From an uncultured Candidatus Peribacteria bacterium (GTDB lineage Bacteria; Patescibacteriota; Gracilibacteria; Peribacterales; Peribacteraceae), in assembly GCA_964562735.1 (NCBI GenBank), contig CAZLUK010000092.1, forward strand, positions 1-39,435: 39,435 nucleotides of DNA, written 5' to 3'. Both the position numbers and the translations under genes were made by a program. Each line of letters starts with the position of its first letter. Within the stretch, counting starts at the first letter, position 1. Below the pieces are notes generated by a model. The model was not told where the DNA came from. It searched no databases and saw only the letters and a program-made list of their open reading frames with translations. Below are positions 1,597-39,404 of the stretch, one piece after another.

Positions 1597-3414
1597 ATGT
1601 TACGTTCCCACACCTGCGGCGAGCTCACGGCGAAGCATGAAGGCACAACTGTCACTCTGTGCGGCTGGGTGAATTCTCGCCGGGATCATGGAGGACTGAT
1701 CTTCATCGACTTGCGGGATCGCTACGGCCTGACACAGGTGGTCTTTCACCCTGAGGGAGTGAAGCGACCTGTGGTGAGCCTGGTCGAACCAGTCGAAGGG
1801 CACCCGGAGAGTGATAAGACGCTCTTCAAAGCCGCGGAGGCAGTGCGGCCAGAATGGGTACTGCGCGTTACGGGAAAGGTATCGAAGCGTCTTCCGGGCA
1901 CCGAGAATAAGCAAATGAAAACCGGTGAGATCGAGGTTCCGATAACTGCACTCGAGATTTTGAATAAGGCCAAAACTCCTCCGTTTGAGATCGCTTCAGA
2001 CAAAGACGTTTCAGAAGACCTGCGTCTGGAATATCGCTACCTCGATATGCGGCGGACGAGAATGCGGAAAAACCTGGAACTTCGGTCCAAGATTCTGCAG
2101 ATCATCCGGAAGTATTTCATCGAGCAAGATTGCTTGGAAATCGATACCCCGTGTCTCATCAAAGGCACGCCGGAGGGGGCCAGAGAGTACATCGTCCCTT
2201 CCCGTATGTATCCGGGGAACTTCTTCGTCCTGCCCCAGAGTCCGCAGCAACTGAAGCAGCTCTGCATGGTGGGGGGACTCGACCGCTACTTTCAGATCGC
2301 GCGGTGCTTTCGTGATGAGGACCTCAGAGGCGACCGGCAACCGGAATTTCTCCAGCTTGATTTCGAGATGAGTTTCGGAGAGCAGGAAGATGTGCAGCAG
2401 ATCATCGAGGGATCGATTCTGGAGATCGTGAAGCGGTGCAGTCCAAAGCAATTGAAAGGCGGGAAGATCGAGCGCTACACCTGGCAGCACGTGATGGATA
2501 CCTACGGCTCCGATAAGCCCGATCTCCGGTATGACCTGCCGATTGTCGATGTGTCAGACATAAGCCAAGGCTGTGGATTCAAGGTCTTCGAGGATGCTCT
2601 CACGAAAGAAGGCGTCGTCCGGGCACTCCGCGTTCCAGGCGGTGCAGTCCTTGCGCGCAGCGAGATCGATACGTGGACGGAAATCGCAAAAGAACTGAAA
2701 GCCAAAGGTCTGGCGTACATTCTCATGAAAGAAGATGGTCCGCAGTCTCCTCTCTTGAAGTTCTTCAAGGAAGGTTTCCTGGATCAGCTTGTGAAAGCCA
2801 CGGGGGCAGGAACTGGTGATGCACTCTTCTTTGGTGCGGACAAGTACTTAATCACGTGTGCATCACTTGGACGGATTCGTAGCGAAGCCGCAAAACGATT
2901 CACGCTGATCGATACCTCCATCCACTCCCTCTTCTGGGTCACGAATTTTCCGATGTTCGAGGAAGCGGATGACAGCTCTCTCACCTTCAGCCATCACCCG
3001 TTCACGAGCCCCAACATGTCCGAGTGGCCGAAACGCAAGACCGACCCACTCTCGGTGCACAGTGTCTGCTATGACCTCGTCCTGGACGGATACGAACTCG
3101 GGTCCGGGTCCATCCGTATCCACGATCCCGTTCTCCAGTCCGAAGTATTTGAGATGCTAGGTATTTCGCCGCAAGATCAGGAACAGAGATTCGGGCACAT
3201 GCTCCGCGCATTTGAGTTTGGTGCACCTCCCCACGGAGGCTTTGCCTATGGCATCGATCGAGTCGTGATGATCATGGCCGGAGAACCCAATATCCGCGAA
3301 GTGACCCCGTTTCCGAAAGATCAGAAAGCGAAAGACCTGATGCTTGGGGCGCCAGCGCCGGTGCCGGAAGCACAACTGAAGGAACTGGGGGTCCGTTGTG
3401 AAGAGAGGCTTTAA
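1597..3414 (+). CDS. aspS: aspartate--tRNA ligase
   Basis: 605 aa. OB-fold N-terminus CGWVNSRRDHGGLIFIDLRDRYG. Class II motifs FQIARCFRDEDLRGDRQPEFLQLDFEMSF, GSGSIRIHD and GAPPHGGFAYGIDRVVMIMAG. Confidence 0.95.
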   Translation: MLRSHTCGELTAKHEGTTVTLCGWVNSRRDHGGLIFIDLRDRYGLTQVVFHPEGVKRPVVSLVEPVEGHPESDKTLFKAAEAVRPEWVLRVTGKVSKRLPGTENKQMKTGEIEVPITALEILNKAKTPPFEIASDKDVSEDLRLEYRYLDMRRTRMRKNLELRSKILQIIRKYFIEQDCLEIDTPCLIKGTPEGAREYIVPSRMYPGNFFVLPQSPQQLKQLCMVGGLDRYFQIARCFRDEDLRGDRQPEFLQLDFEMSFGEQEDVQQIIEGSILEIVKRCSPKQLKGGKIERYTWQHVMDTYGSDKPDLRYDLPIVDVSDISQGCGFKVFEDALTKEGVVRALRVPGGAVLARSEIDTWTEIAKELKAKGLAYILMKEDGPQSPLLKFFKEGFLDQLVKATGAGTGDALFFGADKYLITCASLGRIRSEAAKRFTLIDTSIHSLFWVTNFPMFEEADDSSLTFSHHPFTSPNMSEWPKRKTDPLSVHSVCYDLVLDGYELGSGSIRIHDPVLQSEVFEMLGISPQDQEQRFGHMLRAFEFGAPPHGGFAYGIDRVVMIMAGEPNIREVTPFPKDQKAKDLMLGAPAPVPEAQLKELGVRCEERL

Positions 3415-5290: not shown

Positions 5291-5391
5291 CGTAAAATCG
5301 CTGCGCGATCACGTGGCACCGCCAAAAAGATAGAGGAATCAAAACAGCAGAGGCGATTTTACGTGCCACGTGGCCGCGCAGCGGCTTTACG
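5291..5391. repeat. 29-nt imperfect inverted repeat immediately 3' of tRNA-Leu
   Basis: CGTAAAATCGCTGCGCGATCACGTGGCAC (5291..5319) pairs with GTGCCACGTGGCCGCGCAGCGGCTTTACG (5363..5391), about 25 of 29 complementary. It lies between the tRNA and the toxin-antitoxin islet. Confidence 0.5.
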
Positions 5392-5470: not shown

Positions 5471-5776
5471 TCATTGTTGTGTAGCAATGTTTCTAAGCGC
5501 ATCGTGATCGCAGAGTCGTAGGAGCAGAAGCTCCAGGCGCTGCTCGATGATCTCGTAAACGAGTAGCAGGTCATGATCGATATGACATTCGCGCAGATTC
5601 TTTAAGCGGCCTTTGAGTGCATGGTCACGGAATGTCGTAGGCAATGATTCTTGCTGTTGCAACGTGAGAATCGCTCTCCGAAGCTTCGGTAGCAATTTCG
5701 TGACTTTGCCGCTGTGCAGGAAGCGTCCGAGTTCGCGCTCGTACCTAGGCCGCGTGATGATCGTCAGGAGCTGCAT
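5471..5776 (-). CDS. yafQ: type II toxin, YafQ/RelE-family mRNA interferase
   Basis: FRDHALKGRLKNLRECHIDHDLLLVYEI matches the YafQ core (YKDHPLQGSWKGYRDAHVEPDWILIYK). Paired with an upstream DinJ-like gene. Start taken at the internal Met MQLLTIIT; the ORF extends to 5803. Confidence 0.8.
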   Translation of the reverse strand: MQLLTIITRPRYERELGRFLHSGKVTKLLPKLRRAILTLQQQESLPTTFRDHALKGRLKNLRECHIDHDLLLVYEIIEQRLELLLLRLCDHDALRNIATQQ

Positions 5777-6041
5777 AGGCAGAGCGGAAGAGCGCGTCAA
5801 CATTCTTGTAACGTTTCACAGAAGTGTCCGCACGTGCGGCATGTGCATCCTTCAGAAGAGCTTCCTCCTCCTCAACGCTGAATCCGTTCTCGGTAAGAAT
5901 CTGCAAAGGTACACCATCGGTGATACAAATTTGGTGGATGAATAAGCGTACCACTTGGCTAAGATCAAGCCCCAACTGTGCCAAAATTTTCTGCGCCCGC
6001 TTCTTATGCTTGTCGTCGAGACGAACGTGGAGGGTGGTCAT
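5745..6041 (-). CDS. dinJ: type II antitoxin, RelB/DinJ family
   Basis: 98 aa. MTTLHVRLDDKHKKRAQKILAQLGLDLSQVVRLFIHQI is a ribbon-helix-helix DinJ-type N-terminus. Sits immediately upstream of the YafQ-like toxin. Confidence 0.8.
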   Translation of the reverse strand: MTTLHVRLDDKHKKRAQKILAQLGLDLSQVVRLFIHQICITDGVPLQILTENGFSVEEEEALLKDAHAARADTSVKRYKNVDALFRSAYAAPDDHHAA

Positions 6042-6047
6042 GCAGAC

Positions 6048-6077
6048 ATACTACCGTAGGTGTGTAAACAATGTCAA
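6048..6077 (-). promoter_or_regulatory. candidate promoter TTGACA-18-TAGTAT, with the -10 ending 6 nt before the dinJ ATG
   Basis: On the minus strand: TTGACA (6077..6072), 18-nt spacer, TAGTAT (6053..6048), then 6 nt to the ATG at 6041. No SD. Confidence 0.4.
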
Positions 6078-6121
6078 CACAAGATTCATGGTGGAGCCAA
6101 TGGAACTCGCTCATCCAACTC

Positions 6122-6460
6122 TTACGCAAGTAACAATTCTACTTTCGCGAGAATTGCAGTGACAACAGACGGTGGCACGCGTTCGATGATCAGCGCTCCA
6201 CGTGCTTGCCAGTCGAGGCTCTTCATATGGTCAGCAAGTATCACGCCTTTTGTTTTCATGCCCGCAGGAATGGTCACTTCAAATGGATATCCTTTTGCAT
6301 GGTTTGTGATTGGACAGAAAATCGCCAAGCCGACCTTCTCGTTGTACGAATGAGGCGAAAGCACGAGTGCTGGTCGTCTCCCAGATTGTTCTCTGCCGCG
6401 TTGTGGATCAAAGCTCAGAGAAACAATGTCACCCCGATGTGGTGCGATGGATGTCACCAT
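6122..6460 (-). CDS. mazF: type II toxin MazF/PemK endoribonuclease
   Basis: GDIVSLSFDPQRGREQSGRRPALVLSP...GLAIFCPITNHAKGYPFEV...VILADHMKSLDWQARGA aligns along its length with E. coli MazF. Confidence 0.9.
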   Translation of the reverse strand: MVTSIAPHRGDIVSLSFDPQRGREQSGRRPALVLSPHSYNEKVGLAIFCPITNHAKGYPFEVTIPAGMKTKGVILADHMKSLDWQARGALIIERVPPSVVTAILAKVELLLA

Positions 6461-6687
6461 ACTTCTTTACCAATGACAGAACCTGTTCTCACCTCCCCGT
6501 GCAAATTTTCCGGATTCACCTGTGCTAGGAGGATATCCAAATCCTGCCCGATGGACGCAATGTGCAGACCACTCCGCTCAAGAGAAATCTCTACCTCTTT
6601 GCCGGAATCTATTCCCATATGGACGGCGAATGCTTTGGGGATACGTATCGCCAAACTGTTGCCCCACGTACGGATGACCGCTTTCAT
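6454..6687 (-). CDS. mazE: type II antitoxin MazE (AbrB/SpoVT fold)
   Basis: MKAVIRTWGNSLAIRIPKAF...NPENLHGEV...GKEVW parallels E. coli MazE (VKRWGNSPAVRIP ... TPENLHENIDWG..KDKEVW). Overlaps mazF by 7 nt. Start set at the Met preceding KAVIRTWGNS. Confidence 0.8.
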   Translation of the reverse strand: MKAVIRTWGNSLAIRIPKAFAVHMGIDSGKEVEISLERSGLHIASIGQDLDILLAQVNPENLHGEVRTGSVIGKEVW

Positions 6688-6728
6688 GTCATGAGTATAC
6701 ATTGTATCTACGTGAGACGCAAGCAGAA

Positions 6729-6821
6729 TCAATACACTTCGTCGTGGTTCCCGACCATCAGCAAAAGAACAATCGAGTGTCCACGTTCTTACCTTTCCCC
6801 GAAAAGACTCATTATTCTTGA
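6729..6821 (-). pseudogene. C-terminal remnant of a RelE/StbE-family toxin gene
   Basis: Minus-strand translation ..SRIMSLFGER*ERGHSIVLLLMVGNHDEVY* matches the C-terminus of the intact toxin at 19446..19709 (..RIVYAEERGHAIVLLLMVGNHNKVYG). It has an in-frame stop and no N-terminal part. Confidence 0.5.
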
Positions 6822-6867
6822 TCGGGAGCGGGATTCTTCCCGCGGTCGGCGCGTGGGCTTAGGTGGA

Positions 6868-7161
6868 TTATACCGATCGCTCCCGCTCCTGCAATTTCTT
6901 GTGGCTAACGAGCCAGAGACACGTGATGGTCAAATTCTTGCCATCCTTTTGGTACATCAGGAGCCAATCGGCTTCGACGTGTAATTCCCGATACTGGCGT
7001 AACTTTCCCTGCAGTTGATGATCACGTAACCACGGAGGCAATTCGTGTCCATTTTTGAGTGCATGGAGCGCGGCGCAGAGCAGACGGTCATTTCCTCCAT
7101 GCGCAAGAAACCGACGAACATCACGTTCAAATATCTTGGTGCGGATGAGTGTACATCTCAT
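6868..7161 (-). CDS. yafQ: type II toxin, YafQ/RelE-family mRNA interferase (second copy)
   Basis: LRDHQLQGKLRQYRELHVEADWLLMYQKDG matches the YafQ core. Start overlaps the stop of the upstream DinJ-like gene. Confidence 0.8.
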   Translation of the reverse strand: MRCTLIRTKIFERDVRRFLAHGGNDRLLCAALHALKNGHELPPWLRDHQLQGKLRQYRELHVEADWLLMYQKDGKNLTITCLWLVSHKKLQERERSV

Positions 7162-7424
7162 TATTCCTTACAGGATCGAATGAATGCGTCGATATCATCG
7201 ATGGGTATCATTGGTTCCTTTGAGCGTCGCAGTATTTCCTCTTCTTCCTCTTCGGTAAATCCATTCACCGTGAGCGCAGGCACTGGCAGCGTGCCGCGCA
7301 CATCCATGTGCGTGAGGAACATTCGGATGCATGAGGATAGATCCAGACCATTGGCCTCGGCGACTTTCTGGGCGGATTTTTTCAGCGCATTCGTTACGCG
7401 GATGTGGATGGTGGAAGTTTTCAT
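7161..7424 (-). CDS. dinJ: type II antitoxin, RelB/DinJ family (second copy)
   Basis: MKTSTIHIRVTNALKKSAQKVAEANGLDLSSCIRMFLTHM has the same architecture as 5745..6041, with an acidic EEEEEE linker. Confidence 0.8.
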   Translation of the reverse strand: MKTSTIHIRVTNALKKSAQKVAEANGLDLSSCIRMFLTHMDVRGTLPVPALTVNGFTEEEEEEILRRSKEPMIPIDDIDAFIRSCKE

Positions 7425-19144: not shown

Positions 19145-19329
19145 TGGCGGAGCCAACGGGACTCGAACCCGCGACCCGACTTCGCTCTTCCCACTTTGCC
19201 TGCGGGCTACGTGGGACAAGCCGGAGCTTCGCCGGGCATGCCACCTTCCGTGACCAGCCTTCGCACTCCGGTGCTACGGCTGGCAGGCAGGGAAGCGCTC
19301 TAACCATCAGCCTAGGCTGATACGGCTCC
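19145..19329 (-). pseudogene. tRNA-Asp-like gene (variant D-arm) interrupted by two insertions of 34 and about 69 nt
   Basis: Same 5' part (GGAGCCGTATCAGCCTAGGCTGATGGTTAGAGCGCTTCCCT) and 3' part (GGTCGCGGGTTCGAGTCCCGTTGGCTCCGCCA) as the variants at 20058 and 20278. An extra 34 nt (19255..19288) sits in the anticodon loop and about 69 nt (19177..19245) at the anticodon-stem/variable-loop junction. Confidence 0.55.
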
Positions 19330-19366
19330 ACGAAAAAATCGCAAGTATTTCAATGATGGCGGAGCC

Positions 19367-19378
19367 AATCAGTACTCA
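19367..19378 (-). repeat. solo copy of the tRNA-Asp 3' terminus (TGGCGGAGCCAA on the plus strand)
   Basis: A 12-nt direct repeat of the 3' end of the variant at 20058..20141. Together they bracket the relBE-type cassette. Confidence 0.7.
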
Positions 19379-19445
19379 ATGGATTGCTATCTTTCTGAGT
19401 TCATCATGATTACATAAGCGTAGCAGCAGAAGCTCTAAGCGTTCA

Positions 19446-19709
19446 TCAACCATAGACCTTGTTATGGTTACCGACCATCAACAAGAGAACAATCGCATGT
19501 CCACGTTCTTCGGCATAGACAATGCGTAAATCATAACCTGCCGAGATCGATCGCAGACCTTGCTTGGACCCGAGCAACTTGTGGTTGCGTAACTGAGGAT
19601 GAAAAGGATTATTCGCAAAGAGTCGCAGTGCCAGATCGCTCAACTGCTGCTGCTCGGGTGAGAGCTTGCGATACATTCGTTTGAATGCAGAACTATAACG
19701 GAGTAGCAT
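19446..19709 (-). CDS. relE: type II toxin, RelE/StbE (ParE-superfamily) mRNA interferase
   Basis: 87 aa. ..FHPQLRNHKLLGSKQGLRSISAGYDLRIVYAEERGHAIVLLLMVGNHNKVYG is a typical RelE/StbE C-terminal core. Preceded by a DinJ/RelB-type gene with a 2-nt gap. Confidence 0.8.
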   Translation of the reverse strand: MLLRYSSAFKRMYRKLSPEQQQLSDLALRLFANNPFHPQLRNHKLLGSKQGLRSISAGYDLRIVYAEERGHAIVLLLMVGNHNKVYG

Positions 19710-19711
19710 GG

Positions 19712-20002
19712 CTATTGACGAAGATTGGTCAGGAGTTCGTCAACCGAAGAGAAGGTAGCAGAGACGTTCTTCCCTTTCTTTGCCTGGGCTGCCAACTGGT
19801 CCATTGCGGCGATCTGCTTGGGTGTATACGTATCGTCTTGGCTCTGGAGAAAGAAAGGAATGCCTCCGACATCCGCAACTTTTGTGAAGAAAATACGGAT
19901 CGCTGTGGGGGAATCGATGCCGATTTTACTGAAAATTCCTTCAGCCTTGCGTTTGAGCTTGTCATCGATCCGGATCTGAAGGTTCTTTTTCGCCATATGC
20001 AT
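19712..20002 (-). CDS. type II antitoxin, RelB/DinJ family
   Basis: MAKKNLQIRIDDKLKRKAEGIFSKIGIDSPTAIRIFFTKV is a DinJ-type RHH N-terminus. Start at ATG 20002 or 19996. Confidence 0.75.
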   Translation of the reverse strand: MHMAKKNLQIRIDDKLKRKAEGIFSKIGIDSPTAIRIFFTKVADVGGIPFFLQSQDDTYTPKQIAAMDQLAAQAKKGKNVSATFSSVDELLTNLRQ

Positions 20003-20057
20003 TATGCATGACTATTGTAGTCTTTTTGCATATATAAGGCAAGAGAATTGCGTTGAA

Positions 20058-20141
20058 TGGCGGAGCCAACGGGACTCGAACCCGCGACCTCTTCCGTGAC
20101 AGGGAAGCGCTCTAACCATCAGCCTAGGCTGATACGGCTCC
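20058..20141 (-). tRNA. tRNA-Asp(GTC)-like variant with a 7-nt-longer, palindromic D-arm region (function uncertain)
   Basis: RNA sense: GGAGCCGTA-TCAGCCTAGGCTGA-TGGTTAGAGCGCTTCCCTGTCACGGAAGAGGTCGCGGGTTCGAGTCCCGTTGGCTCCGCCA (84 nt). Identical to the canonical gene except that GCTCAGC of the D-arm is replaced by TCAGCCTAGGCTGA. Confidence 0.5.
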
Positions 20142-20168
20142 ACGAAAAAATCGCAAGTATTTCAATGA

Positions 20169-20181
20169 TGGCGGAGCCAAC
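20169..20181 (-). repeat. solo copy of the tRNA-Asp 3' terminus (TGGCGGAGCCAAC on the plus strand)
   Basis: A 13-nt direct repeat of the 3' end of the variant at 20278..20361. Together they bracket a 96-nt hairpin-rich insert (20182..20277). Confidence 0.7.
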
Positions 20182-20277
20182 CCCTCGACTCCTCCTCGGC
20201 TCGTTACACTCGCTCGGAGTCGCTCGGGGTTTCCGAGGTCGTTTTTGGAATAGGGAAGATTGGTGTTGTTTCAATTG

Positions 20278-20361
20278 TGGCGGAGCCAACGGGATTCGAA
20301 CCCGCGACCTCTTCCGTGACAGGGAAGCGCTCTAACCATCAGCCTAGGCTGATACGGCTCC
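20278..20361 (-). tRNA. tRNA-Asp(GTC)-like variant with palindromic D-arm region (function uncertain)
   Basis: Same 84-nt structure as 20058..20141, with one T-loop difference (TTCGAATCC). Separated from the canonical tRNA-Asp by the conserved 27-nt spacer. Confidence 0.5.
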
Positions 20362-20388
20362 ACGAAAAAATCGCAAGTATTTCAATGA

Positions 20389-20465
20389 TGGCGGAGCCAA
20401 CGGGACTCGAACCCGCGACCTCTTCCGTGACAGGGAAGCGCTCTAACCAGCTGAGCTACGGCTCC
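20389..20465 (-). tRNA. tRNA-Asp (anticodon GTC), CCA encoded
   Basis: GGAGCCGTAGCTCAGCTGGTTAGAGCGCTTCCCTGTCACGGAAGAGGTCGCGGGTTCGAGTCCCGTTGGCTCCGCCA. Canonical cloverleaf, anticodon loop CTGTCAC, discriminator G. Confidence 0.9.
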
Positions 20466-20549
20466 AGATATCTTCATTTTCTACGTGTCACTAAAACGGT
20501 GTCACAAAGGAGCAAATGCGGTAGCGGATTTTAGGCCAGCCCAACAAGT

Positions 20550-26332: not shown

Positions 26333-28573
26333 TCAGAGCAGCGGCTCTTCGAAATTTTCCGCGTCATCAATCTCATCTTTCTCCGGGGGCTTAGATGCCG
26401 CCTCATCCCACAGTTTCAGGAGCGTTTCGACCTCGGATTTCGGGGCGCAGTACTGTGATCTGGACCATTCGATGATCTCCTGCGTATGATCGTCCGTCGA
26501 CTGAGGTGCTTCCAATGTGAAGCCCGAGAAGGCTTCCCGCAGCTGTCCGTTGACTGACATTTTCGTATAAAACTCGCGCACACCTAGATTGATGATGTCG
26601 CGTTCCTTGAAAATGGGACTGTATTCGCCCGCCAGGATGACTGCGTCTTCCGCCCCGACGCGGAAGCTAACCATGGAACCCACGTTGCCAAAGACGGTCT
26701 TGCGGACCGTGTCGCTTAGTTGTCCCATGTACTGATGCGCGATTGTCAGGTTCAGGCGATATTTACGGGCTTCGGACAGGATTTCGGCGAATGTGTCGGT
26801 CGCGAAGTTCTGGAACTCATCGACGTACAGATAGAAGTCCGTGCGCTGGTCCTCCGGAACGTCGGCCCGGCTCATGGCGGCCTGGTATAACTTAGTAATA
26901 AACATTGCGCCGATCAGTGACGAGTTCTCTTCCCCCAGCAGCCCTTTGCTCACTTTCATGAGCAGGATTTTCTTGTTGTCCATGATGTCTCGGATATCAA
27001 ACTTAGTCACCGGCTGACCGACCATGTTGCGGATCATGTTGGTAGCCACAAATTGCCCGACTTTATTGAGCAGCGGCGTGATGGCATCGGCATCGAATTT
27101 TTCGCTCCAGGCGGCAAATTCCGAAACCCAGAAGCTTTTGACAACTGAGTCCTGGATTCGGGAAACAATCTTCTGACGGTAATTTTTGTCTGTCAGCATC
27201 TTAAGGATCGAGAGCACGGTCGTATTCGGACTGTCTAGAAGCGCTAGTACGGTGTACCTAAGCACGTGCTCCAATCGGTCGCTCCAGTTATTTCCGAACA
27301 GCTTCTTAAATATCTGCAGGAAACCGATCGTCACCTGCATCTTCTGGGCCTCATCCACTTTCTCGAGCGGATTGAACGCGATCGGGAAATCAACGTCGCC
27401 TGGATCCAGGAGTACAACGTCTTTGATTCGGTGCACGGGTATATAGCGCATGATGTTATCAATCAGGTCGCCGTGCGGATCAATCACCGCGATGCCTTCG
27501 CCTTTTTGCAAATCTTCGTTGATGAGTAATTCAAGCAGTTTGCTCTTGCCCGATCCGGACTTTCCAACTGTATAGAGGTGGCGCCGCCGGTCCGCACGGA
27601 GGATACCGAACGGGACGAAGTTATTGTGGTAGTTCGTGATGCCGAACGCACTGACGTCTGGTTCACTCTGTTTCGGCAGATCCTGCGGCGGATCAGACTT
27701 GCGGGCCAGCACGTGCACGATGTGCGGCACTTCATCGGCATTGGGCAGATGGTACAGGGTCGCTACTTCCTTGGCGCTCAATATGAATGGTGTCGTGTGC
27801 GTGCGAGCCCGGTATTGATCGACAAATTTCTGCATCGAGCCATGATAAATGTGCGAGTGGAACTCGTTGATATCTTTATCATTAAATTGAGAAAAGCTGC
27901 TCGCGAGTGCGGTCAATTTTCGTTCGGCCGATGCCGGATCAGTGCTGATGTACGCTACTCGGATACTCACCGTGAATGGCTTGATCTCAGCTTTCTCGTG
28001 GGCCAGCTGATGGCGGCGGGGCTGGATACTCTTGCGCCCGCCCGGACGCATGCGGTCGCGGATCGAGAAGAAGTGGATAAAATCGGCGATGTGTATCGCG
28101 ACGCGGCGGCGCAAGTGAAAGAACGCAGTGTCATCCTGCGGCTCGGCGATGATCTGCACCCACGCCTGGTCGCCGGTCGGAATTTTGGAGATCACGGAAA
28201 ACAGCCGTGTGGCACTGTCCTCCTCAAACATGTCGTAGGTTTTGATCGGATAAATATCGGAGTGGTGCAGGCTGATCGTTGCACCCGCGATGTCATCGTG
28301 TTCAGGATCGTAACTGAGTGTGTAGTCCTGAGCCTCTTTGATTTCGGCTTCCGGAAACGTGGCGTAGATCAACCCTTCCACTGTTTCGAGCAGTTGTTCC
28401 TGGACTGCTACAAAGAAGTATGTGTACTGCCCGACCCCATAGAACTCGAGCCCTACCCGCGTGCCCGTGAACGTGTTACGCAAGTTGATCAGCAGTTCAT
28501 GGAACTTGGATTCCGGTTTCTTCTGACCTTCCACGCCCTGCGGAACGATGATGTGGAGATGGCGGAGTTTCAT
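26333..28573 (-). CDS. VirD4/TraG/TraD-like (FtsK-HerA superfamily) P-loop ATPase with a long N-terminal domain of unknown function
   Basis: 746 aa. Walker A TVGKSGSGKSKLLELL, then AVIDPHGDL, and Walker B FYLYVDEFQNFATD, followed by LTIAHQYMGQL. The N-terminal ~300 aa has no recognisable motif. Confidence 0.75.
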   Translation of the reverse strand: MKLRHLHIIVPQGVEGQKKPESKFHELLINLRNTFTGTRVGLEFYGVGQYTYFFVAVQEQLLETVEGLIYATFPEAEIKEAQDYTLSYDPEHDDIAGATISLHHSDIYPIKTYDMFEEDSATRLFSVISKIPTGDQAWVQIIAEPQDDTAFFHLRRRVAIHIADFIHFFSIRDRMRPGGRKSIQPRRHQLAHEKAEIKPFTVSIRVAYISTDPASAERKLTALASSFSQFNDKDINEFHSHIYHGSMQKFVDQYRARTHTTPFILSAKEVATLYHLPNADEVPHIVHVLARKSDPPQDLPKQSEPDVSAFGITNYHNNFVPFGILRADRRRHLYTVGKSGSGKSKLLELLINEDLQKGEGIAVIDPHGDLIDNIMRYIPVHRIKDVVLLDPGDVDFPIAFNPLEKVDEAQKMQVTIGFLQIFKKLFGNNWSDRLEHVLRYTVLALLDSPNTTVLSILKMLTDKNYRQKIVSRIQDSVVKSFWVSEFAAWSEKFDADAITPLLNKVGQFVATNMIRNMVGQPVTKFDIRDIMDNKKILLMKVSKGLLGEENSSLIGAMFITKLYQAAMSRADVPEDQRTDFYLYVDEFQNFATDTFAEILSEARKYRLNLTIAHQYMGQLSDTVRKTVFGNVGSMVSFRVGAEDAVILAGEYSPIFKERDIINLGVREFYTKMSVNGQLREAFSGFTLEAPQSTDDHTQEIIEWSRSQYCAPKSEVETLLKLWDEAASKPPEKDEIDDAENFEEPLL

Positions 28574-30072: not shown

Positions 30073-31749
30073 TTAGTAGACAATTGAGAGATAGCATTCT
30101 TCGCAGTACACAATTTCGGGGCGCGAAGGCTGGTACGTCGTTTGGATCGATTTATTGCACTTCAAACATTCTCTCTGCCAGAGCCTGCGCGGATTACGGA
30201 GCATCATCCGTTCTTTCTGCCGGCATTCGGGACAGCATCGAGGAATCGGCAGATGTTGGCGACGATAGAACGAAAGTTCTTGCGGTATGACTCGATAGTT
30301 TTTTCCGCAATTCCTGCATGCCAGCAGCTCTTTTGCAATATCGTCCTTCGTATCGGCGATCCTGTCACTGAGCACGGTTGTCTGTGGTTGATATTCGCGT
30401 ACGTCCTTCTCGCGCCACGTGAATTTTCTCGCTATTGCCTCTTCCCTCCTCAACGGGAAATATTCGGAGGCCAGACTTTCGTTGTACGCAAACGTCGCGA
30501 TTGCGGGAGGGAAAAAGAGCCCCCATTCGCTGGTTTTTTCCATGTGCTTGATGAGCTTGGGCACGAGAGCGTCATACTCTTCTTGCGAGTACTGTTTATT
30601 CAAGATGCAGTGCTTCTTTCGCGTGAGTCCAATACAGCCAAAACAGTCGCTACAGTGATAGCACGTGTCGCAGTACAGCATCCGTTGCGAGTAGAAGATG
30701 TACAGGCAGTACGCAACGTTGTATGCCTCGATGGTCCCGAGTGTGTCGTAACAGAGCTCGGGCTTCAGGTACATATTTGAGCAGTCGTAATTGTCTTTCA
30801 CGTTCACGCCGACCGTAACCCATCGGCAGTCTTGGCTCTCGTTGACGTCGTAACAGTCTAAACAGTTCTGAGAATTTTCGATGTAATCGCCAGTGCAGTT
30901 TTCAGAGTTCACGATGTTTGAGTACTTGTGAAGTTTCTTCAGGTTAAGATCCTTCAGGTGTTTCTTTCCGGCTTCCAGCGCGGCGTGTGACCCAAGAAGT
31001 TCCGTGACGCGCTTCGCATACTCTTCTTTCGTCAGTTGTTCGTTGAAGATGCAGTATTTCTTCCTCGAAAGATTAGTGCAGAGACAGCAGTTGGCGCAGG
31101 ACTGTAAGTTCGACGATAGCAAGCAGTCCTGGCAGTTCTGGCTGAAGGACAGAAACATGCAGTTATAGGAACCGTACACACTGAAGCACTCGTAGCAGAG
31201 CTCCGAGTCGTAGAGATAGCAGCAATCCATGGAATTCTTGCACTTCTGGAAGAGCTTTCCGTAGTAGCAATCTTCGGCGTACTCGGACGAGTTGATGAGG
31301 TAACAGTTTTTGCAGTAGCCGGTGCCGGTCGTGAAGTCCGAATTCTCATTGGCGACCGTGACCATGGCAACTCGCGGCACTTTTTTCTGAAGCATCGCAT
31401 ATTGTTCGAAGAAGCTACGTGCAAAGTCGATGTCCTGTCCGTACTGCAATGGATCGAAGGCATCGCTTCGCCATTCTTCCTGCGAGTATACCGAGTACGG
31501 CTCGCCCCATGGCGCGTCATCGTGATATAGAGCGACGATGTCCTTTCCCGATTTCGTCGATTTCCTGCGGTACATGCATTGTTCGTTGCGGTGGCAGGCG
31601 CGGATTTGCAGGCGGCAGTCCGGACAGTACACCGGACGCGGCGGGTGAAACGTCGCTATGCCGAACGTGAAACCTATTTTTTCAAGAAATGCCTCTTCAT
31701 CCGGATGGATGATGAAACCCTGATTGCAGCGTTTGCAGGAAGACTCCAT
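30073..31749 (-). CDS. cysteine-ladder / zinc-ribbon protein, paralog A
   Basis: 558 aa. N-terminal CKRC..CPDCRLQIR..RNEQCMYRRK. Two Cys-ladder halves, each ending ..KKYCIFNEQLTKEEY or ..KKHCILNKQYSQEEY. C-terminal FYRRQHLPIPRCCPECRQKERMMLRNPRRLWQRECLKC-x17-CEECYLSIVY. Confidence 0.8.
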   Translation of the reverse strand: MESSCKRCNQGFIIHPDEEAFLEKIGFTFGIATFHPPRPVYCPDCRLQIRACHRNEQCMYRRKSTKSGKDIVALYHDDAPWGEPYSVYSQEEWRSDAFDPLQYGQDIDFARSFFEQYAMLQKKVPRVAMVTVANENSDFTTGTGYCKNCYLINSSEYAEDCYYGKLFQKCKNSMDCCYLYDSELCYECFSVYGSYNCMFLSFSQNCQDCLLSSNLQSCANCCLCTNLSRKKYCIFNEQLTKEEYAKRVTELLGSHAALEAGKKHLKDLNLKKLHKYSNIVNSENCTGDYIENSQNCLDCYDVNESQDCRWVTVGVNVKDNYDCSNMYLKPELCYDTLGTIEAYNVAYCLYIFYSQRMLYCDTCYHCSDCFGCIGLTRKKHCILNKQYSQEEYDALVPKLIKHMEKTSEWGLFFPPAIATFAYNESLASEYFPLRREEAIARKFTWREKDVREYQPQTTVLSDRIADTKDDIAKELLACRNCGKNYRVIPQELSFYRRQHLPIPRCCPECRQKERMMLRNPRRLWQRECLKCNKSIQTTYQPSRPEIVYCEECYLSIVY

Positions 31750-31752
31750 AGG

Positions 31753-31851
31753 TTAGTACACTGCCTCCAGATAGCACTTCTCGCCCTTCGATGCGCTGCG
31801 CTTACTCAGGGCGAATCGTGCCGACGGAGAAAAAATTGGTGACATAGATGC
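31753..31851 (-). repeat. R3 repeat, copy 2 (fills the whole spacer between paralogs B and A)
   Basis: Hairpin arms GCACTTCTCGCCC (31774..31786) and GGGCGAATCGTGC (31809..31821) with a 22-nt loop. The remnant ..GEKCYLEAVY* ends 3 nt before the ATG of paralog A. Confidence 0.75.
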
Positions 31852-33564
31852 CTAATATATACTCTTCAGGTAGCACGATTCGCAATACACAATCTCCGGA
31901 CGTTCCGGAGCATAACTCGTTTGGATCTCTCGCTGACAGTTTTGACAAGTGCGTGTCCAGAGTCTGTAGGGAGTCCGCAGAGCCATGCGCCGCCGATGAC
32001 GCTCTTCTGGGTGCAATCGGGGGAGCGCAAGATGTTCGCGGCGATAGAAATCGAGTTCCTGTTTAATGATACGAAATGGCTTACCCGTCACTTCACAGAT
32101 GATCGCATAATCTAGTACGTCATCCTGCACCGCATCGATGATGGCGGGCAGATCGCTGCCCCGGATAGTTTTTGCAACCGTGGGAGGATCACCGGTCGTG
32201 GCTTTCCATTGCCAGCCCTTGGCGAGCACTTCTTCTTTGGTAAGCGGGAAGTGATCCTGAGCGAGCGTTTCGTTGTAGGCGAAAGGACTCATGGATACCG
32301 GAAAGAATTCACCCCACTCCTGCCCCGCGAAGCTGCCGTCAGGCAAGCGAAGTGGGGTCTTCTCCATGTGCTGGATGATCTTCGGCACGAGCTCGTTGTA
32401 TTCCTCCTCCGTGTACTGTTTGTTGAGAATACAATAGTGTTTGCTGGTGAGGCCGATGCACCCGAAACACTGCGTGCAGGAGCGAATGTTTTCACTGTAG
32501 TACACTTGTTCGCAAGTTGATGCGAAACTGTCGAACGCACAGCGTTGCGTAGTGCTGCCTGCTCCATGCATCTCATAGAGGATTTCCGCATTTTTCCCTG
32601 CGGAGCTGCAATCCATCATGTCTTTGCTTTTCCACCCGCACATTTGGCAGTGCCGACAATCTTCCGCGCCAAGTTGCACGAAGTAACAATCGATGCAATT
32701 TCGCGCTTGTTCGATGTAATTCCCCGAACAGTGTTCCGACTGGGTGATGCGTGCGCAGAGCGTGGGGAGTGTCACTTTCCAACGATCAAAAAATATTTTC
32801 TCTGTCGCAAACCTGCCATCAAACAATGCTTGACGCTTTGCTTCGAATTCCTCGCGGGAGACGGGTTTGTTATAGATGTGATATTCCTTCTCGCGTAAAT
32901 TCTTACAGCCGATGCAGTTGTGGCAATTACGACAGTCATCGAGGAGGATCGAATCCTGGCAGTTGCTGCAATCGTGACAGGAGAAACAGTGGTAGCAGTT
33001 GTTGCAGCCGACGCATTCGTACAACAGTTCTCCCTGCACGCAGCAAAGACAATCCATACAATTCTTGCCCATCATCCACGAGCTGTAGTAGACGTCTTGG
33101 CAGAGAAAACACGAGAATGCGAGGTAGCAGTTTTTGTTGTTCATGCCGAACGCGGTATAATCACTGTTTTCAGCGAGTCCATCTTGGTGCATGCCTCTGC
33201 GAGGTACTTTTTGCATCAGCGCTGCAAATTGGTCGAAGAATGTCTTCGTGAAATCCATATCGATCCCGTACTGCATCGGATCCCATGCATCGCTCGCCCA
33301 CGCAGATTCGGAGTAAACTACAAAGGGCTTGTCCTCAGAATATAAAGAGACCATCGGCTTGCCAGTCAGCGCACAGGTACGGCGGTAGAGATTTCGCTCG
33401 TTACGTAGTCCAAACCGTCGCTGGCATCGACAGGACGGACAGTGGGTTGGTGGAGGCAAAGGAAAACTTTTTCCATTGATGACCGGAGCAAGTTTATCCA
33501 ACAATTGGAGATCGTCTTCCATGAGCGTAAAGGCCAAGCTGCAACTAACGCAATGCTTCTGCAT
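31852..33564 (-). CDS. cysteine-ladder / zinc-ribbon protein, paralog B
   Basis: Same architecture as A. Start set at MQKHCVSCS (33564) by analogy with the A, C and D N-termini; the ORF extends to 33621, where it would overlap the divergent MFS gene. The C-terminus is ..LPRLHPEERHRRRMALRTPYRLWTRTCQNC-x17-CESCYLKSIY. Confidence 0.8.
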   Translation of the reverse strand: MQKHCVSCSLAFTLMEDDLQLLDKLAPVINGKSFPLPPPTHCPSCRCQRRFGLRNERNLYRRTCALTGKPMVSLYSEDKPFVVYSESAWASDAWDPMQYGIDMDFTKTFFDQFAALMQKVPRRGMHQDGLAENSDYTAFGMNNKNCYLAFSCFLCQDVYYSSWMMGKNCMDCLCCVQGELLYECVGCNNCYHCFSCHDCSNCQDSILLDDCRNCHNCIGCKNLREKEYHIYNKPVSREEFEAKRQALFDGRFATEKIFFDRWKVTLPTLCARITQSEHCSGNYIEQARNCIDCYFVQLGAEDCRHCQMCGWKSKDMMDCSSAGKNAEILYEMHGAGSTTQRCAFDSFASTCEQVYYSENIRSCTQCFGCIGLTSKHYCILNKQYTEEEYNELVPKIIQHMEKTPLRLPDGSFAGQEWGEFFPVSMSPFAYNETLAQDHFPLTKEEVLAKGWQWKATTGDPPTVAKTIRGSDLPAIIDAVQDDVLDYAIICEVTGKPFRIIKQELDFYRREHLALPRLHPEERHRRRMALRTPYRLWTRTCQNCQREIQTSYAPERPEIVYCESCYLKSIY

Positions 33565-33611
33565 GAGGATATATTCTATCCCCATTTCCGGATCGAAGGT
33601 ACTATTATCGC

Positions 33612-34892
33612 ATGCATTCAAAGCGAAAGGATCTGTGGCTGTGGGCTTCCTATGACTTCGCCAATTCGATCGCGCTCATCAGTCTCTCGTTTTATTTCGG
33701 ACTATGGTTCATTTCAGAGCAGCACGCATCCGATGTCTGGATCAGTACGTCGGTTGCGGTATCGACGGTTGCCATGCTCTTTACGTTGCCGGTCCTTGGT
33801 AAAATGTCCGATCGCGCCGGGAAGCGCATGCCGTTTCTGATCGGGTGCTCGCTCCTCTGCATCGCGTCACTCATCGCACTCGGCCTCTTTACGGGGAGAG
33901 TGGAGCATCTCACGTTTATGTCCACCATGATCATTTTTGTCCTCTATTCCGCATTCAATTTTTTCTACAATTCCTGTTTCGCCTTCTACGATGCGTTTCT
34001 GAAAGAACTAACACAGAATGCACACTCACTCGAACGCACATCGGGGTTCGGCAACGGGATGGGGCAAGTAGGGAATGTTGTAGCGTTGCTCATTGCCATT
34101 CCTCTCGCGCAGGGGAGCATTTCCATTCTCGGTTTCAGCGGGAAGCCGCTGATTTTCATTGTCGCCGGTGTACTGTTTCTCCTCTTCGCGTTGCCGACTT
34201 TTCTTTTTCTAAAAGATAAGCCGCATGCGGCGGAACCGGTAAAATTGGGACGCAGCTTACGTGAAACCCTTCACGATCTGTGGCATATCCGGGAATATCC
34301 GGGGGTGCTGTCGTATCTCATCACGTATTGTCTCTTTGCCGACGCACTCCTCACGCTACAGCTGTTCGCTTCCTCGTATTTGGAGACCGTTGGGCACATG
34401 CCCGATACGCAGAAAAACATCACATTCATGCTTGCGGTTGGTACGGGAATCATCGGATCCTTCACCAGTCCGCTCTTCGTTCGGCTCTTCGGTTCCCGCA
34501 AGCGCGCGATCTCGGCCTTCATCGCGATGTGGACGGTGGTGCTCGCGCTCGTCGCTGTGGCAACTGTACCGTGGCTCTTCATGGTACTGATTATCTTGAA
34601 CGGCTTCGCATTCGGAGCGCTTTTTTCTCTTTCGCGCGCATTCTTTGCCGCTCTCGTCCCCGCAGACAAACAATCAGAGATGTTCGGCATCTATGCGCTC
34701 TTTGGGCGTACCGCATCCGTCTTCGGTCCACTCCTCTGGAGCGCGACAGCGCTCGCCTTCGCATCGTTCGGCGAAGATCGTTACCGGTTTTCCATCGTCG
34801 CGCTGGCAGTCCTCGTTCTTATCAGCTGGTTCACCATGCAACGAGTGAAAGAACCGCTGCATGCCAAGAGCTCTTCATCGTCATTGGTGTGA
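33612..34892 (+). CDS. MFS transporter (UMF1/Atg22-like family)
   Basis: 426 aa with about 12 hydrophobic segments. N-terminal signature WLWASYDFANSIALISLSFYFGLWF. Confidence 0.85.
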   Translation: MHSKRKDLWLWASYDFANSIALISLSFYFGLWFISEQHASDVWISTSVAVSTVAMLFTLPVLGKMSDRAGKRMPFLIGCSLLCIASLIALGLFTGRVEHLTFMSTMIIFVLYSAFNFFYNSCFAFYDAFLKELTQNAHSLERTSGFGNGMGQVGNVVALLIAIPLAQGSISILGFSGKPLIFIVAGVLFLLFALPTFLFLKDKPHAAEPVKLGRSLRETLHDLWHIREYPGVLSYLITYCLFADALLTLQLFASSYLETVGHMPDTQKNITFMLAVGTGIIGSFTSPLFVRLFGSRKRAISAFIAMWTVVLALVAVATVPWLFMVLIILNGFAFGALFSLSRAFFAALVPADKQSEMFGIYALFGRTASVFGPLLWSATALAFASFGEDRYRFSIVALAVLVLISWFTMQRVKEPLHAKSSSSSLV

Positions 34893-36615: not shown

Positions 36616-36927
36616 CTACACCGAAATACCGTGCGCCTTCACCTCCTCGGCAAGTGTGAAATACTTGTTTTTCAGATCTTCTTCATGGAGACAGACCGTT
36701 TCAATCCGTCGGCTCAGCGGACGGCGTAATTTTCGGAGTGTCGTGTTCTCATCATGCACGGAAGGCAGGAAAGGCTTCACGATGACGGCGATATCGATGT
36801 CACTGTCCTCGGTTGAGTTGTCCGCTGCCATGGAGCCGAAGAGACGGACATCAATGACGGGAATGCCCGCTTCTAGGAGGATTTTTTTATAGGCAATGGC
36901 CACTGCGAGAGCTTGAAAGCGATTCAT
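36616..36927 (-). CDS. nucleotidyltransferase-domain protein (MNT-type antitoxin partner of HEPN)
   Basis: LFGSMAADNSTEDSDIDIAVIV is a pol-beta-superfamily NTase motif. The ATG overlaps the HEPN stop (ATGA). The stop lies 1 nt before the ATG of paralog C. Confidence 0.8.
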   Translation of the reverse strand: MNRFQALAVAIAYKKILLEAGIPVIDVRLFGSMAADNSTEDSDIDIAVIVKPFLPSVHDENTTLRKLRRPLSRRIETVCLHEEDLKNKYFTLAEEVKAHGISV

Positions 36928-37313
36928 AGGTGGAGGGCTTGGTCCAGTTTTTTGAAAAGGAGATCGGTATTTTTGAGCCACGCAGCAACATTTTCTTTTG
37001 TCGCCTTTTCTTCATGCCAGCGTTGATCTTCATAGCGAGCTGCTGTGCTGTAGCCGCTCAAGTCATCAAGGAGATCTTCTTCCTGCTCACTCCAATGTGA
37101 CGATAGTTGTTCTGCAAGAGCGGAGAGGTCATGTGTTGGAGGCGGATTTTTGTCTTTTTCAAGGATGAAGACTGCTTTCAGAGCCTTTTCTACCGCAAGG
37201 TGGCAATGGAAAAGTGCGAGTGCGTACTTGCCGTTTTTCGCGAGTAACCTGGCGGCATCGAGTGCATCATGTGCTCCTCTATGCCAGTGCTTGATTATCT
37301 CCGCTTGCAACAT
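36924..37313 (-). CDS. HEPN-domain protein (toxin partner of MNT)
   Basis: 129 aa. ..ALALFHCHLAVEKALKAVFI.. and ..YSTAARYED.. are typical of small HEPN proteins paired with minimal nucleotidyltransferases. Confidence 0.8.
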   Translation of the reverse strand: MLQAEIIKHWHRGAHDALDAARLLAKNGKYALALFHCHLAVEKALKAVFILEKDKNPPPTHDLSALAEQLSSHWSEQEEDLLDDLSGYSTAARYEDQRWHEEKATKENVAAWLKNTDLLFKKLDQALHL

Positions 37314-39242: not shown

Positions 39243-39404
39243 TGAACTTAGTCTATCATCTCTAAGGTAACAATTTTCACCCGCCCCTCCATCGTCAATT
39301 GCGTGAAATACAGGATCACATGATTCCTTGGTGGATAAAGTTTTTCCAATACACAATCAGATGACCTACATTGCTGCGTATTGGAACGCTCTCCCCCAGC
39401 CCGC

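Follow-up and report, generated by a model that had tools for sequence, protein, structure and literature searches.

In a 39,435-nt stretch of DNA from an uncultured Candidatus Peribacteria (CPR) bacterium (GCA_964562735.1, contig CAZLUK010000092.1; hereafter the window), a presumably functional tRNA-Asp(GTC) gene is followed by three disabled copies of itself, each marked by the palindrome TCAGCCTAGGCTGA. In related bacteria the same palindrome, at the same tRNA position, accompanies a tiny GIY-YIG nuclease gene nested between duplicated tRNA genes, pointing to an apparently undescribed kind of selfish DNA element that targets tRNA genes. We consider the locus an accretion zone left at the tRNA-Asp gene by a family of such elements, with a rough probability of 60%.

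The array reads along the minus strand, and its features are collected in Table 1. ARAGORN calls only the canonical gene as a tRNA. Variants B and C equal the canonical gene except that GCTCAGC in the 5′ half of the D-arm is replaced by TCAGCCTAGGCTGA, plus one G>A change in the T-loop of C. With the Rfam tRNA model, B and C were recovered only on a shifted local alignment with four non-standard pairs, and variant A was not found. The D-stem is lost, and the variants lack the cloverleaf with a D-stem, recognised by tRNA finders, that is expected of a functional bacterial tRNA. Variant A additionally carries two inserts, both built of an outer stem, then GTAGC, an inner hairpin, RAA and the outer stem again. 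The three 27-nt spacers, TCATTGAAATACTTGCGATTTTTTCGT, are identical, and no promoter-like site was found in the spacer. The palindrome occurs three times in the window against 0 expected, and the tRNA 3′-end sequence TTGGCTCCGCCA occurs six times exactly against 0.34 expected at one mismatch or fewer.

Table 1. Features of the tRNA-Asp array and of the second cassette island (positions in the window)
Feature	Position	Strand	Details
Promoter-like site	20476..20505	-	GTGACA-18-GAAAAT, upstream of the canonical tRNA-Asp; upstream region conserved in syntenic species (L003, L004, L023)
Canonical tRNA-Asp(GTC)	20389..20465	-	Presumably functional; Rfam 68.7 bits
Spacer, copy 1	20362..20388	-	27 nt
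Variant C	20278..20361	-	84 nt; palindrome at 20339-20352; Rfam 39.4 bits
96-nt insert	20182..20277	-	Non-coding, rich in hairpins; probably the remnant of a cassette
Solo tRNA-Asp 3′ end	20169..20181	-	13 nt, GTTGGCTCCGCCA
Spacer, copy 2	20142-20168	-	27 nt
Variant B	20058..20141	-	84 nt; palindrome at 20119-20132; Rfam 38.1 bits
Toxin-antitoxin cassette	19376..20042	-	Comprises the four features below
Promoter-like site of cassette	20042..20014	-	TTGCCT-17-TACAAT
relB	20002..19712	-	PF04221
yafQ/relE	19709..19446	-	PF15738
Gene remnant	19444..19376	-	Out-of-frame 3′ end of a second yafQ-type gene
Solo tRNA-Asp 3′ end	19357..19368	-	12 nt, TTGGCTCCGCCA
Spacer, copy 3	19330-19356	-	27 nt
Variant A	19145..19329	-	185 nt; palindrome at 19307-19320
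Variant A, first insert	19254-19287	-	34-nt hairpin insert inside the anticodon
Variant A, second insert	19176-19244	-	69 nt, in the variable region, replacing AG
Second cassette island	5471..7424	-	In order: RelB/YafQ, remnant of the array toxin's 3′ end (~6790..6732), MazE/MazF, degenerate solo tRNA-Asp 3′ end (6109..6089), RelB/YafQ

The preliminary description of this locus had reported a tandem array of one canonical and three aberrant tRNA-Asp genes with identical spacers and two inserts bounded by repeats of the tRNA 3′ end, and this observation is confirmed. The only error found was the position of the second solo 3′ end, given as 19378..19367, which is off by 10 nt. Its interpretation is partly supported. 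The structural reading, in which removal of the inserts restores four tandem genes, holds, and the solo 13-mer GTTGGCTCCGCCA also bounds a cassette at the tRNA-Asp of another Peribacteria genome (L120). The inference of integrase-type integration at an att core is not supported. Of the options it had left open (functional odd tRNAs, decoys or attachment sites, pseudogenes), ‘pseudogenes’ is closest, but they are pseudogenes of a specific kind, as the palindrome is the shared tag of a nuclease-associated element family that also hits tRNA-Val and tRNA-Ile.

In comparisons with other genomes, the identical palindrome was found at the identical position in variant tRNA-Val genes of two other species, and in both a GIY-YIG ORF ends at the central TAG of the palindrome. 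A census with the pattern TATCNGCCNAGGCNGATGGTTAG matched 33 sites on 28 contigs, almost all in Peribacteria or Peregrinibacteria, where the tagged copies derive from Val-CAC, Val-GAC, Val-TAC, Ile-GAT and Asp-GTC. About 15 of these sites are within 500 nt of a GIY-YIG ORF of ~80 aa of the Slx1/UPF0213 type, sandwiched between an intact and a tagged copy of one tRNA. The tRNA-Asp cases (L120 and two further loci, L127 and L140) carry exactly TCAGCCTAGGCTGA. L120 reads, in order, a stub with the same palindrome, tRNA-Asp, three solo TGGCTCCGCCA, a GIY-YIG gene (PF01541, E = 2.9e-12) and then solo GTTGGCTCCGCCA, identical to the solo end in the window. Other phyla show the same layout with other GC-rich hairpins (YCCGCC-N2-3-GGCGGR). 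Of 36 GIY-YIG loci from several phyla, 16 have a same-strand tRNA within about 200 nt, and of 18 nuclease-plus-tRNA loci, 16 carry colinear partial copies of that tRNA around the ORF, with hairpins in place of arms. Culturable carriers include Flavobacterium psychrophilum and Chitinophaga (loci L102 and L131). The hairpin stems differ by changes on both sides (CCCGCC/GGCGGG, CCCGAC/GTCGGG, CCCGTC/GACGGG, TCAGCC/GGCTGA and TCGGCC/GGCCGA). As a MAFFT alignment did not place the gaps in the hairpin loops, these compensatory changes were read directly from the sequences, and our hairpin search required perfect stems, which biases the set toward pairing.

Presence and absence of additions vary at the same locus in related genomes, as expected of a homing-endonuclease element. 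L003 and L006 have a bare tRNA-Asp downstream of the same phosphorylase gene, whereas L004, L005, L007, L023 and the window have additions, the first four representing other decay states, and partial tRNA-Asp copies in related species have quite different breakpoints. At a tRNA-Val locus, L085, the acceptor stem of the tagged copy differs from the resident tRNA-Val but matches that of locus L084, so the ORF and the tagged copy moved together. Tandem amplification is seen in three further loci (L093, L083 and L088). A metagenome scan for the palindrome gave a single locus, L083, and a viral scan gave none. The nuclease had no hit in 50,697 phage records or in PADLOC, and only weak PHROG matches. 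Exact look-ups of three window proteins found nothing, and hence no strain variants of this array for comparison.

From these comparisons, several parts of our reading are shown by the sequences themselves. Complete elements in other Peribacteria carry the minimal GIY-YIG gene between an intact and a disabled copy of one tRNA, with GCTCAGC of the D-arm in the disabled copy replaced by a 14-nt palindrome, TC(A/G/C)GCC-NA-GGC(T/C/G)GA, and the last codons of the nuclease gene, often including its stop codon, are supplied by tRNA nt 1-9 plus the left arm of the palindrome. The targeted tRNAs (Val, Ile, Asp) share the D-arm TAGCTCAGCTGGTTAGAGC. The window holds only nuclease-less derivatives, namely three tagged pseudogenes, one of them invaded by further hairpin inserts, while its two inserts bounded by solo 3′ ends match a second insertion mode seen in L120, where the cargo is a GIY-YIG gene rather than a RelB/YafQ addiction cassette or a 96-nt remnant. 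What we infer is the homing-type mechanism, including nuclease activity and cutting. In this view the nuclease would break a tRNA gene, and repair would copy the element from a carrier allele using tRNA sequence as homology arms, thereby duplicating the tRNA. Selection would keep one copy intact, while the other carries the hairpin, which would remove the target, limit deleting recombination or serve as the nuclease's own cis site. Repeated break and repair would amplify units in tandem and trap other cassettes.

Several findings weigh against this reading. There is no GIY-YIG gene or remnant in the window, so the link rests on comparison with other genomes, and the window copies are non-autonomous at best. 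No tRNA-Asp locus was found with a nuclease fused to a D-arm-tagged copy, and at Asp only the stub form and the L120 form were seen. A homing model does not explain how the intact tRNA copy next to the nuclease escapes cutting, nor why a conserved hairpin, rather than any change, replaces the arm. The two self-consistent but different tRNA-Val copies of L085 do not fit simple gap repair, and the predicted nuclease has no DNA-binding domain. The 96-nt insert could not be tied significantly to any nuclease element: its similarity to the region upstream of the nuclease at locus L106 was only marginal (5 of 300 shuffles did as well), and its similarity to L120 was not significant. We also rejected the possibility that it is a decayed tRNA-Asp copy, since 87 of 500 shuffles did as well in a local alignment to spacer plus tRNA.

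Among alternative explanations, site-specific integration, as proposed in the preliminary description, with the tRNA-Asp 3′ end TTGGCTCCGCCA as the core site of an integrase-type recombinase and the variants as attachment sites or by-products, is possible but unlikely. Integration into tRNA 3′ ends is common, both inserts are bounded by 12-13-nt direct repeats, a toxin-antitoxin island 14 kb away also holds a degenerate tRNA-Asp 3′ end, and the tandem solo ends of L120 are as repeated integration and excision would leave. However, no tyrosine or serine recombinase domain was found among the window ORFs scanned, which did not include every small ORF and leave the rest of the genome unseen, the cassettes are tiny, and the L120 cargo is a nuclease gene. 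This model also does not explain full-length and 5′ tRNA duplications, the D-arm palindrome shared with Val and Ile copies, or the variable breakpoints in relatives. It is similarly unlikely that the variants are functional RNAs, such as tRNA-like molecules with a hairpin in place of the D-arm that act as decoys for tRNA-cleaving toxins, cis elements that stabilise or process co-transcribed RNA, or partners of the nuclease. Variants B and C fold into a cloverleaf-like shape with intact acceptor, anticodon and T arms (z = -2.6), the inserts of variant A extend arms rather than break them (z = -3.3), and, apart from the T-loop change in C and the inserts of A, the sequence outside the D-arm is identical to the canonical gene. 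Hairpin stems keep pairing through double changes, some with G-T pairs, the variants have no promoter of their own but lie 27 nt behind a transcribed tRNA, and prokaryotic Slx1-like nucleases are found fused to tRNA methyltransferases (PMC1564403). Yet in relatives the tagged copies decay freely, some to 30-nt stubs, some with the anticodon loop replaced or interrupted and some truncated, Rfam scores drop by 30 bits, and perfect palindromes with no loop fit DNA-level events better than RNA hairpins.

Ordinary tandem duplication followed by random decay is very unlikely. Although tandem tRNA duplications are common and the spacers are identical, this reading is contradicted by the same 14-nt palindrome replacing the same 7 nt in different tRNAs and in about 20 species, linked to a nuclease gene far more often than chance allows. 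An assembly artefact is less likely still: the repeated units are 99-100% identical and about 124 nt long, and the window comes from an uncultured organism, but each unit has unique flanks, and independent assemblies from other studies show the same architecture. We also considered restriction-site explanations (CCTAGG, CCGCGG). CCTAGG is rare in the window, with four sites of which three are in the variants, but nothing links the palindromes to a restriction system.

Literature searches, in an incomplete library, found no description of tRNA-linked minimal GIY-YIG genes or of palindrome-tagged tRNA copies. The phage GIY-YIG endonuclease SegB (T4/T6) offers a precedent, as this free-standing homing endonuclease gene lies beside tRNA genes, and SegB cuts inside tRNA genes at a T-loop motif and drives tandem amplification of the tRNA-plus-nuclease segment by recombination (PMC13096335). 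SegB is a two-domain protein encoded by a phage, whereas the nucleases here are chromosomal and consist of a catalytic domain only; hairpin-substituted tRNA copies did not come up in the SegB sections consulted. The nearest solved relatives of the nuclease are UPF0213 proteins and the structure-specific nuclease SLX1. By sequence, the nucleases of the complete elements belong to the prokaryotic Slx1-like/UPF0213 (COG2827) proteins, which a 2006 survey regards as vertically inherited repair proteins (PMC1564403), while here many members behave as mobile genes linked to tRNA genes. Integrase-mediated islands (phage, ICE or CIME) share direct repeats of the tRNA 3′ end at both borders, a variable downstream region and addiction cassettes, but here the repeats are only 12-13 nt, the tRNA is duplicated in full or at its 5′ end, and the D-arm holds a palindrome. 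REP/BIME elements with RAYT and IS200/IS605 likewise combine short GC-rich hairpins around a small nuclease gene with many orphan hairpin copies, though that nuclease is HUH rather than GIY-YIG, the hairpins here replace arms of duplicated tRNA genes, and no transposition chemistry is known for the elements described here. Integrons are also arrays of small cassettes separated by structured sites, with toxin-antitoxin cassettes as typical cargo, but no IntI, attI or attC was found and the separators here are tRNA-derived. GIY-YIG ORFs inserted without intron structure in stable-RNA genes are found in CPR rRNA genes (PMC11270868), a paper that does not mention tRNA genes.

More tentatively, and judged slightly less likely than not, minimal Slx1/UPF0213-type nucleases together with a signature GC-rich hairpin (YCCGCC-N2-3-GGCGGR) may form a widespread, undescribed class of selfish elements in CPR, Bacteroidota, Calditrichota, Verrucomicrobiota and other phyla, which would colonise tRNA genes by duplicating them and disabling the extra copy through swapping an arm for the hairpin. 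Arrays such as this one would be their fossil record and would act as landing pads for other cassettes. If true, this would give a biological role and a genomic signature to a very common ‘function unknown’ nuclease family (UPF0213/COG2827), and would explain the pseudo-tRNA arrays and tRNA fragments that clutter genomes of uncultured bacteria. As Rfam scores two of the copies in the window above its threshold, such copies can inflate tRNA counts. It would also add a way in which essential RNA genes are colonised without being lost, by duplication and disabling of one copy, and would point to 80-residue nucleases that may recognise DNA structure plus sequence.

Toxin-antitoxin cassettes also accumulate at these sites. 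In the array, a RelB antitoxin gene lies directly upstream of a RelE/YafQ toxin gene with its own promoter-like site, both confirmed by Pfam and NCBIfam (TIGR02384 and TIGR02385). The tail of this cassette showed no significant similarity to a decayed tRNA and is instead a remnant of a second yafQ-type gene. The second island in the window has exchanged cassette parts with the array.

The window derives from a Candidatus Peribacteria (Peregrinibacteria, CPR) genome, and its flanking phosphorylase-like gene has its best matches, at 85% identity, in Peribacterales assemblies. On the minus strand, ARAGORN finds one tRNA-Asp(GTC), which Rfam scores at 68.7 bits, and this gene is followed by three further copies (variants C, B and A), each preceded by an identical 27-nt spacer. 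Variants B and C equal the canonical gene, except that GCTCAGC is replaced by the perfect palindrome TCAGCCTAGGCTGA and that C also has one G>A change in the T-loop, whereas A additionally has a 34-nt insert inside the anticodon and a 69-nt insert in the variable region. The palindrome occurs three times where none is expected, and TTGGCTCCGCCA occurs six times. The 96-nt insert and the RelB/YafQ cassette are each followed by a solo tRNA 3′ end. The array given in the preliminary description was confirmed, with the correction that the second solo end lies 10 nt away from the position first assigned to it (19378..19367). All three variants were rejected by ARAGORN, while Rfam gave B and C 38-39 bits on a shifted local alignment with non-standard pairs and missed A. 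Coordinates of the window features are collected in the table.

Coordinates of features in the window
Feature	Coordinates	Strand	Remarks
Canonical tRNA-Asp(GTC)	20465..20389	-	
27-nt spacer	20362-20388	-	first of three identical copies
Variant C	20361..20278	-	
96-nt insert	20277..20182	-	
Variant B	20141..20058	-	
Second solo tRNA-Asp 3′ end	19368..19357	-	
Variant A	19329..19145	-	
Structured inserts in variant A	19176-19287		span holding both inserts
Second toxin-antitoxin island	7424..5471	-	next to tRNA-Leu
Remnant of the array toxin's 3′ end	~6790..6732		in the second island
Degenerate solo tRNA-Asp 3′ end	6109..6089		in the second island
Second YafQ-type toxin	5803..5471		in the second island
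Inverted repeat and ACGTGGC repeats	5291-5366		directly after tRNA-Leu(TAG)
Aspartyl-tRNA synthetase gene	1597-3414	+	17 kb from the tRNA-Asp array
TraG/VirD4-like coupling protein gene	26333-28573	-	
Two adjacent paralogous ORFs	30073-33621	-	~570 aa each
HEPN-domain gene	36924-37313	-	
612-aa ORF	37518-39356	-	no Pfam match
Four perfect palindromes	38089-38343		12-16 nt each, inside the 612-aa ORF

The palindrome is private neither to this locus nor to tRNA-Asp. An exact search found the palindrome plus the D-loop in two other Peribacteria species, where it sits in copies of tRNA-Val(CAC). In both species, a small ORF lies between the intact tRNA-Val and the tagged copy, and this ORF is a GIY-YIG catalytic domain (PF01541, E = 1e-13 to 1e-16). 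Its last codons are tRNA nt 1-9 plus the left palindrome arm, and its stop codon is the TAG at the centre of the palindrome. In locus L002, the tagged copy has all three loops replaced by related palindromes (TCAGCCTAGGCTGA, TCCACCTAGGCGGA and TCGGCCTAGGCCGA). A census with the pattern TATCNGCCNAGGCNGATGGTTAG found 28 stretches of DNA (33 sites), nearly all in Peribacteria or Peregrinibacteria, with tagged copies derived from Val-CAC, Val-GAC, Val-TAC, Ile-GAT and Asp-GTC, all of which share the D-arm TAGCTCAGCTGGTTAGAGC. Two forms recur: a stub form, in which tRNA nt 1-9, the palindrome, TGGTTAG(A) and a short leader are placed in front of the intact tRNA, and a nuclease form, in which the nuclease ORF is fused to a full-length tagged copy behind the intact tRNA. 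L002 and two further loci, L126 and L139, have both forms around one intact tRNA. In all, about 15 of the 33 sites lie within 500 nt of a GIY-YIG ORF. In stub-containing loci, the motif ATCATTCACAT precedes tRNA 5′ ends whatever the tRNA identity (seen in the leaders of L002, L083, L088, L121, L122 and L132), and the 27-nt spacer of the window begins with the similar TCATTGAAAT; it is possible that this motif is part of the element, or that it is a decayed tRNA 3′ end.

The same layout exists in other phyla, with other hairpins. A search with the nuclease alignment gave 36 loci, of which 16 have a same-strand tRNA within about 200 nt. In 16 of 18 nuclease-plus-tRNA loci, colinear partial copies of that tRNA surround the ORF, with arms replaced by a GC-rich hairpin. 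Examples are TCCGCCGCGGCGGA in a Chitinophagaceae tRNA-Phe copy and in Flavobacterium tRNA-Met copies, CCCGCC-NNN-GGCGGG in tRNA-Cys copies (Calditrichia, plus loci labelled Bacteroidetes and Ignavibacteriaceae) and in a Peregrinibacteria tRNA-Trp copy, and CCCGAC-AGR-GTCGGG in Opitutaceae tRNA-Asn copies. The stems differ by changes on both sides, so that pairing is what is kept, though our hairpin search required perfect stems. Tandem amplification is seen in three loci (L093, L083 and L088). In the tRNA-Val locus L085, the tagged copy has an acceptor stem unlike that of the resident tRNA-Val but like that of locus L084, and the ORF and the tagged copy therefore moved together.

Further structured sequences were observed at these sites. 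A second small insert type consists of a 6-bp outer stem, (G)TAGC, a short inner hairpin, RAA and then the outer stem again, resembling a tRNA acceptor stem plus D-arm with the rest deleted. Two copies sit inside variant A, and similar ones occur in other Peribacteria tagged copies (downstream of the tagged tRNA-Val in loci L086 and L087, and in the variable region of locus L135). The same 20-nt perfect palindrome, CCTGCCTGCCGGCAGGCAGG, occurs in the anticodon loop of a Peregrinibacteria tagged tRNA-Ile (L124) and upstream of a Saccharibacteria GIY-YIG gene (L103), and the 34-nt insert of variant A starts with CCTGCC at the equivalent anticodon position. A Peribacterales GIY-YIG gene (locus L106, the same as L008; positions 1409-1829) is flanked by inverted repeats (ACTTTTCTCGAGCGA / TCGCTCGAGAAAAGT and AGTCGAGAGAC / GTCTCTCGACT), with a TCCGCCTTTGGCGGA hairpin and no intact tRNA nearby.

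Seven related loci (L003-L007, L023 and the window) have tRNA-Asp on the same side of the same phosphorylase gene, directly behind it in some and about 1 kb away in others, but they differ in what surrounds it. L003 and L006 have a bare tRNA-Asp, whereas L004, L005 and L007 have partial or degenerate copies with hairpin inserts, and L023 has a copy whose D-arm is replaced at the same borders by a different palindrome, TCCCGCGGCCGCGGGA. At tRNA-Asp genes found in the census, L120, L127 and L140 carry stubs with exactly the palindrome of the window. L120 is the closest parallel to the cassettes of the window: the tRNA-Asp is followed by an 18-nt palindrome, three solo TGGCTCCGCCA, a GIY-YIG ORF (PF01541, E = 2.9e-12, and 40-45% identical to nucleases of other loci) and then the solo GTTGGCTCCGCCA, the last of which is the same 13-mer as in the window.

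In the window itself, there is no GIY-YIG gene or remnant in the 39 kb, and no integrase domain was found in the ORFs scanned. The toxin-antitoxin cassette has its own promoter-like site, while the 27-nt spacers have none. Behind its toxin gene lies an out-of-frame remnant, ERLELLLLRLCNHDELRKIAIH, ending at a stop codon, which matches the C-terminus of a second YafQ-type toxin. That second toxin belongs to a second island, which holds RelB/YafQ, MazE/MazF and another RelB/YafQ, and which also contains a remnant of the array toxin's 3′ end (53 of 66 nt identical) and a degenerate solo tRNA-Asp 3′ end (3 mismatches in 21 nt, none expected by chance). The two loci have therefore exchanged cassette parts.

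What the comparisons establish is the association of the tag, the duplicated tRNA and the nuclease gene, together with the presence/absence polymorphism, the tandem amplification and the progressive decay of tagged copies. The mechanism, including any cutting by the nuclease, is inferred. In this model, the nuclease breaks a tRNA gene, and repair from a carrier allele copies the element, with tRNA sequence serving as homology arms, which would yield exactly the order of stub, intact tRNA, nuclease and tagged copy. Recombination between the intact and tagged copies would delete the ORF, leaving stub-only or ORF-less forms like those in the window, and repeated breaks would amplify the units, although the scheme does not by itself account for how the intact copy would escape cutting or for why the hairpin sequence is conserved. 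Phage SegB is a precedent for both tRNA-gene cutting and amplification (PMC13096335). The nearest solved relatives of the nuclease are UPF0213 proteins and the structure-specific nuclease SLX1. The nuclease has no DNA-binding domain, so recognition of a DNA hairpin or cruciform is a plausible source of specificity, which would make the hairpin a cis site rather than a mere scar.

There are other possible explanations for the array. Integrase-type integration at the tRNA 3′ end, suggested in the preliminary description, whose structural reading of the array holds but whose inference of integration at an att core is not supported here, explains the 12-13-nt repeats, but it does not explain the 5′ and full-length duplications, the tag shared with Val and Ile copies, or the nuclease cargo in L120. 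The variants fold well, and it therefore cannot be excluded that they are functional tRNA-like RNAs; however, tagged copies decay freely in relatives. Plain duplication followed by decay is contradicted by the census, and an assembly artefact is contradicted by independent assemblies showing the same architecture.

Full-text literature searches found no account of minimal GIY-YIG genes linked to tRNA genes, or of palindrome-tagged tRNA copies. A 2006 survey of the superfamily treats prokaryotic Slx1-like proteins as vertically inherited repair enzymes, though it does note fusions to a TrmH-type tRNA methyltransferase and to COG4123 (PMC1564403). COG4123 is now regarded as a tRNA methyltransferase family. 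A 2024 study reports GIY-YIG ORFs in CPR rRNA genes but does not mention tRNA genes (PMC11270868). We place the finding among nuclease-driven selfish elements at tRNA genes, a kind already known, with the tRNA-linked minimal GIY-YIG genes and the palindrome-tagged tRNA copies as the features for which we found no earlier account, and we regard the window as holding non-autonomous remains of such an element.

Elsewhere in the window, palindromes of 14 nt or longer are more numerous than its size predicts, and four perfect palindromes lie within a 260-nt stretch inside the 612-aa ORF. The inverted repeat directly after tRNA-Leu(TAG) reads ACGTAAAATCGC / GCGATTTTACGT. The aspartyl-tRNA synthetase gene has tRNA-synt_2, GAD and anticodon-binding domains, and the two adjacent paralogous ORFs each have a weak C-terminal treble-clef zinc-finger match.
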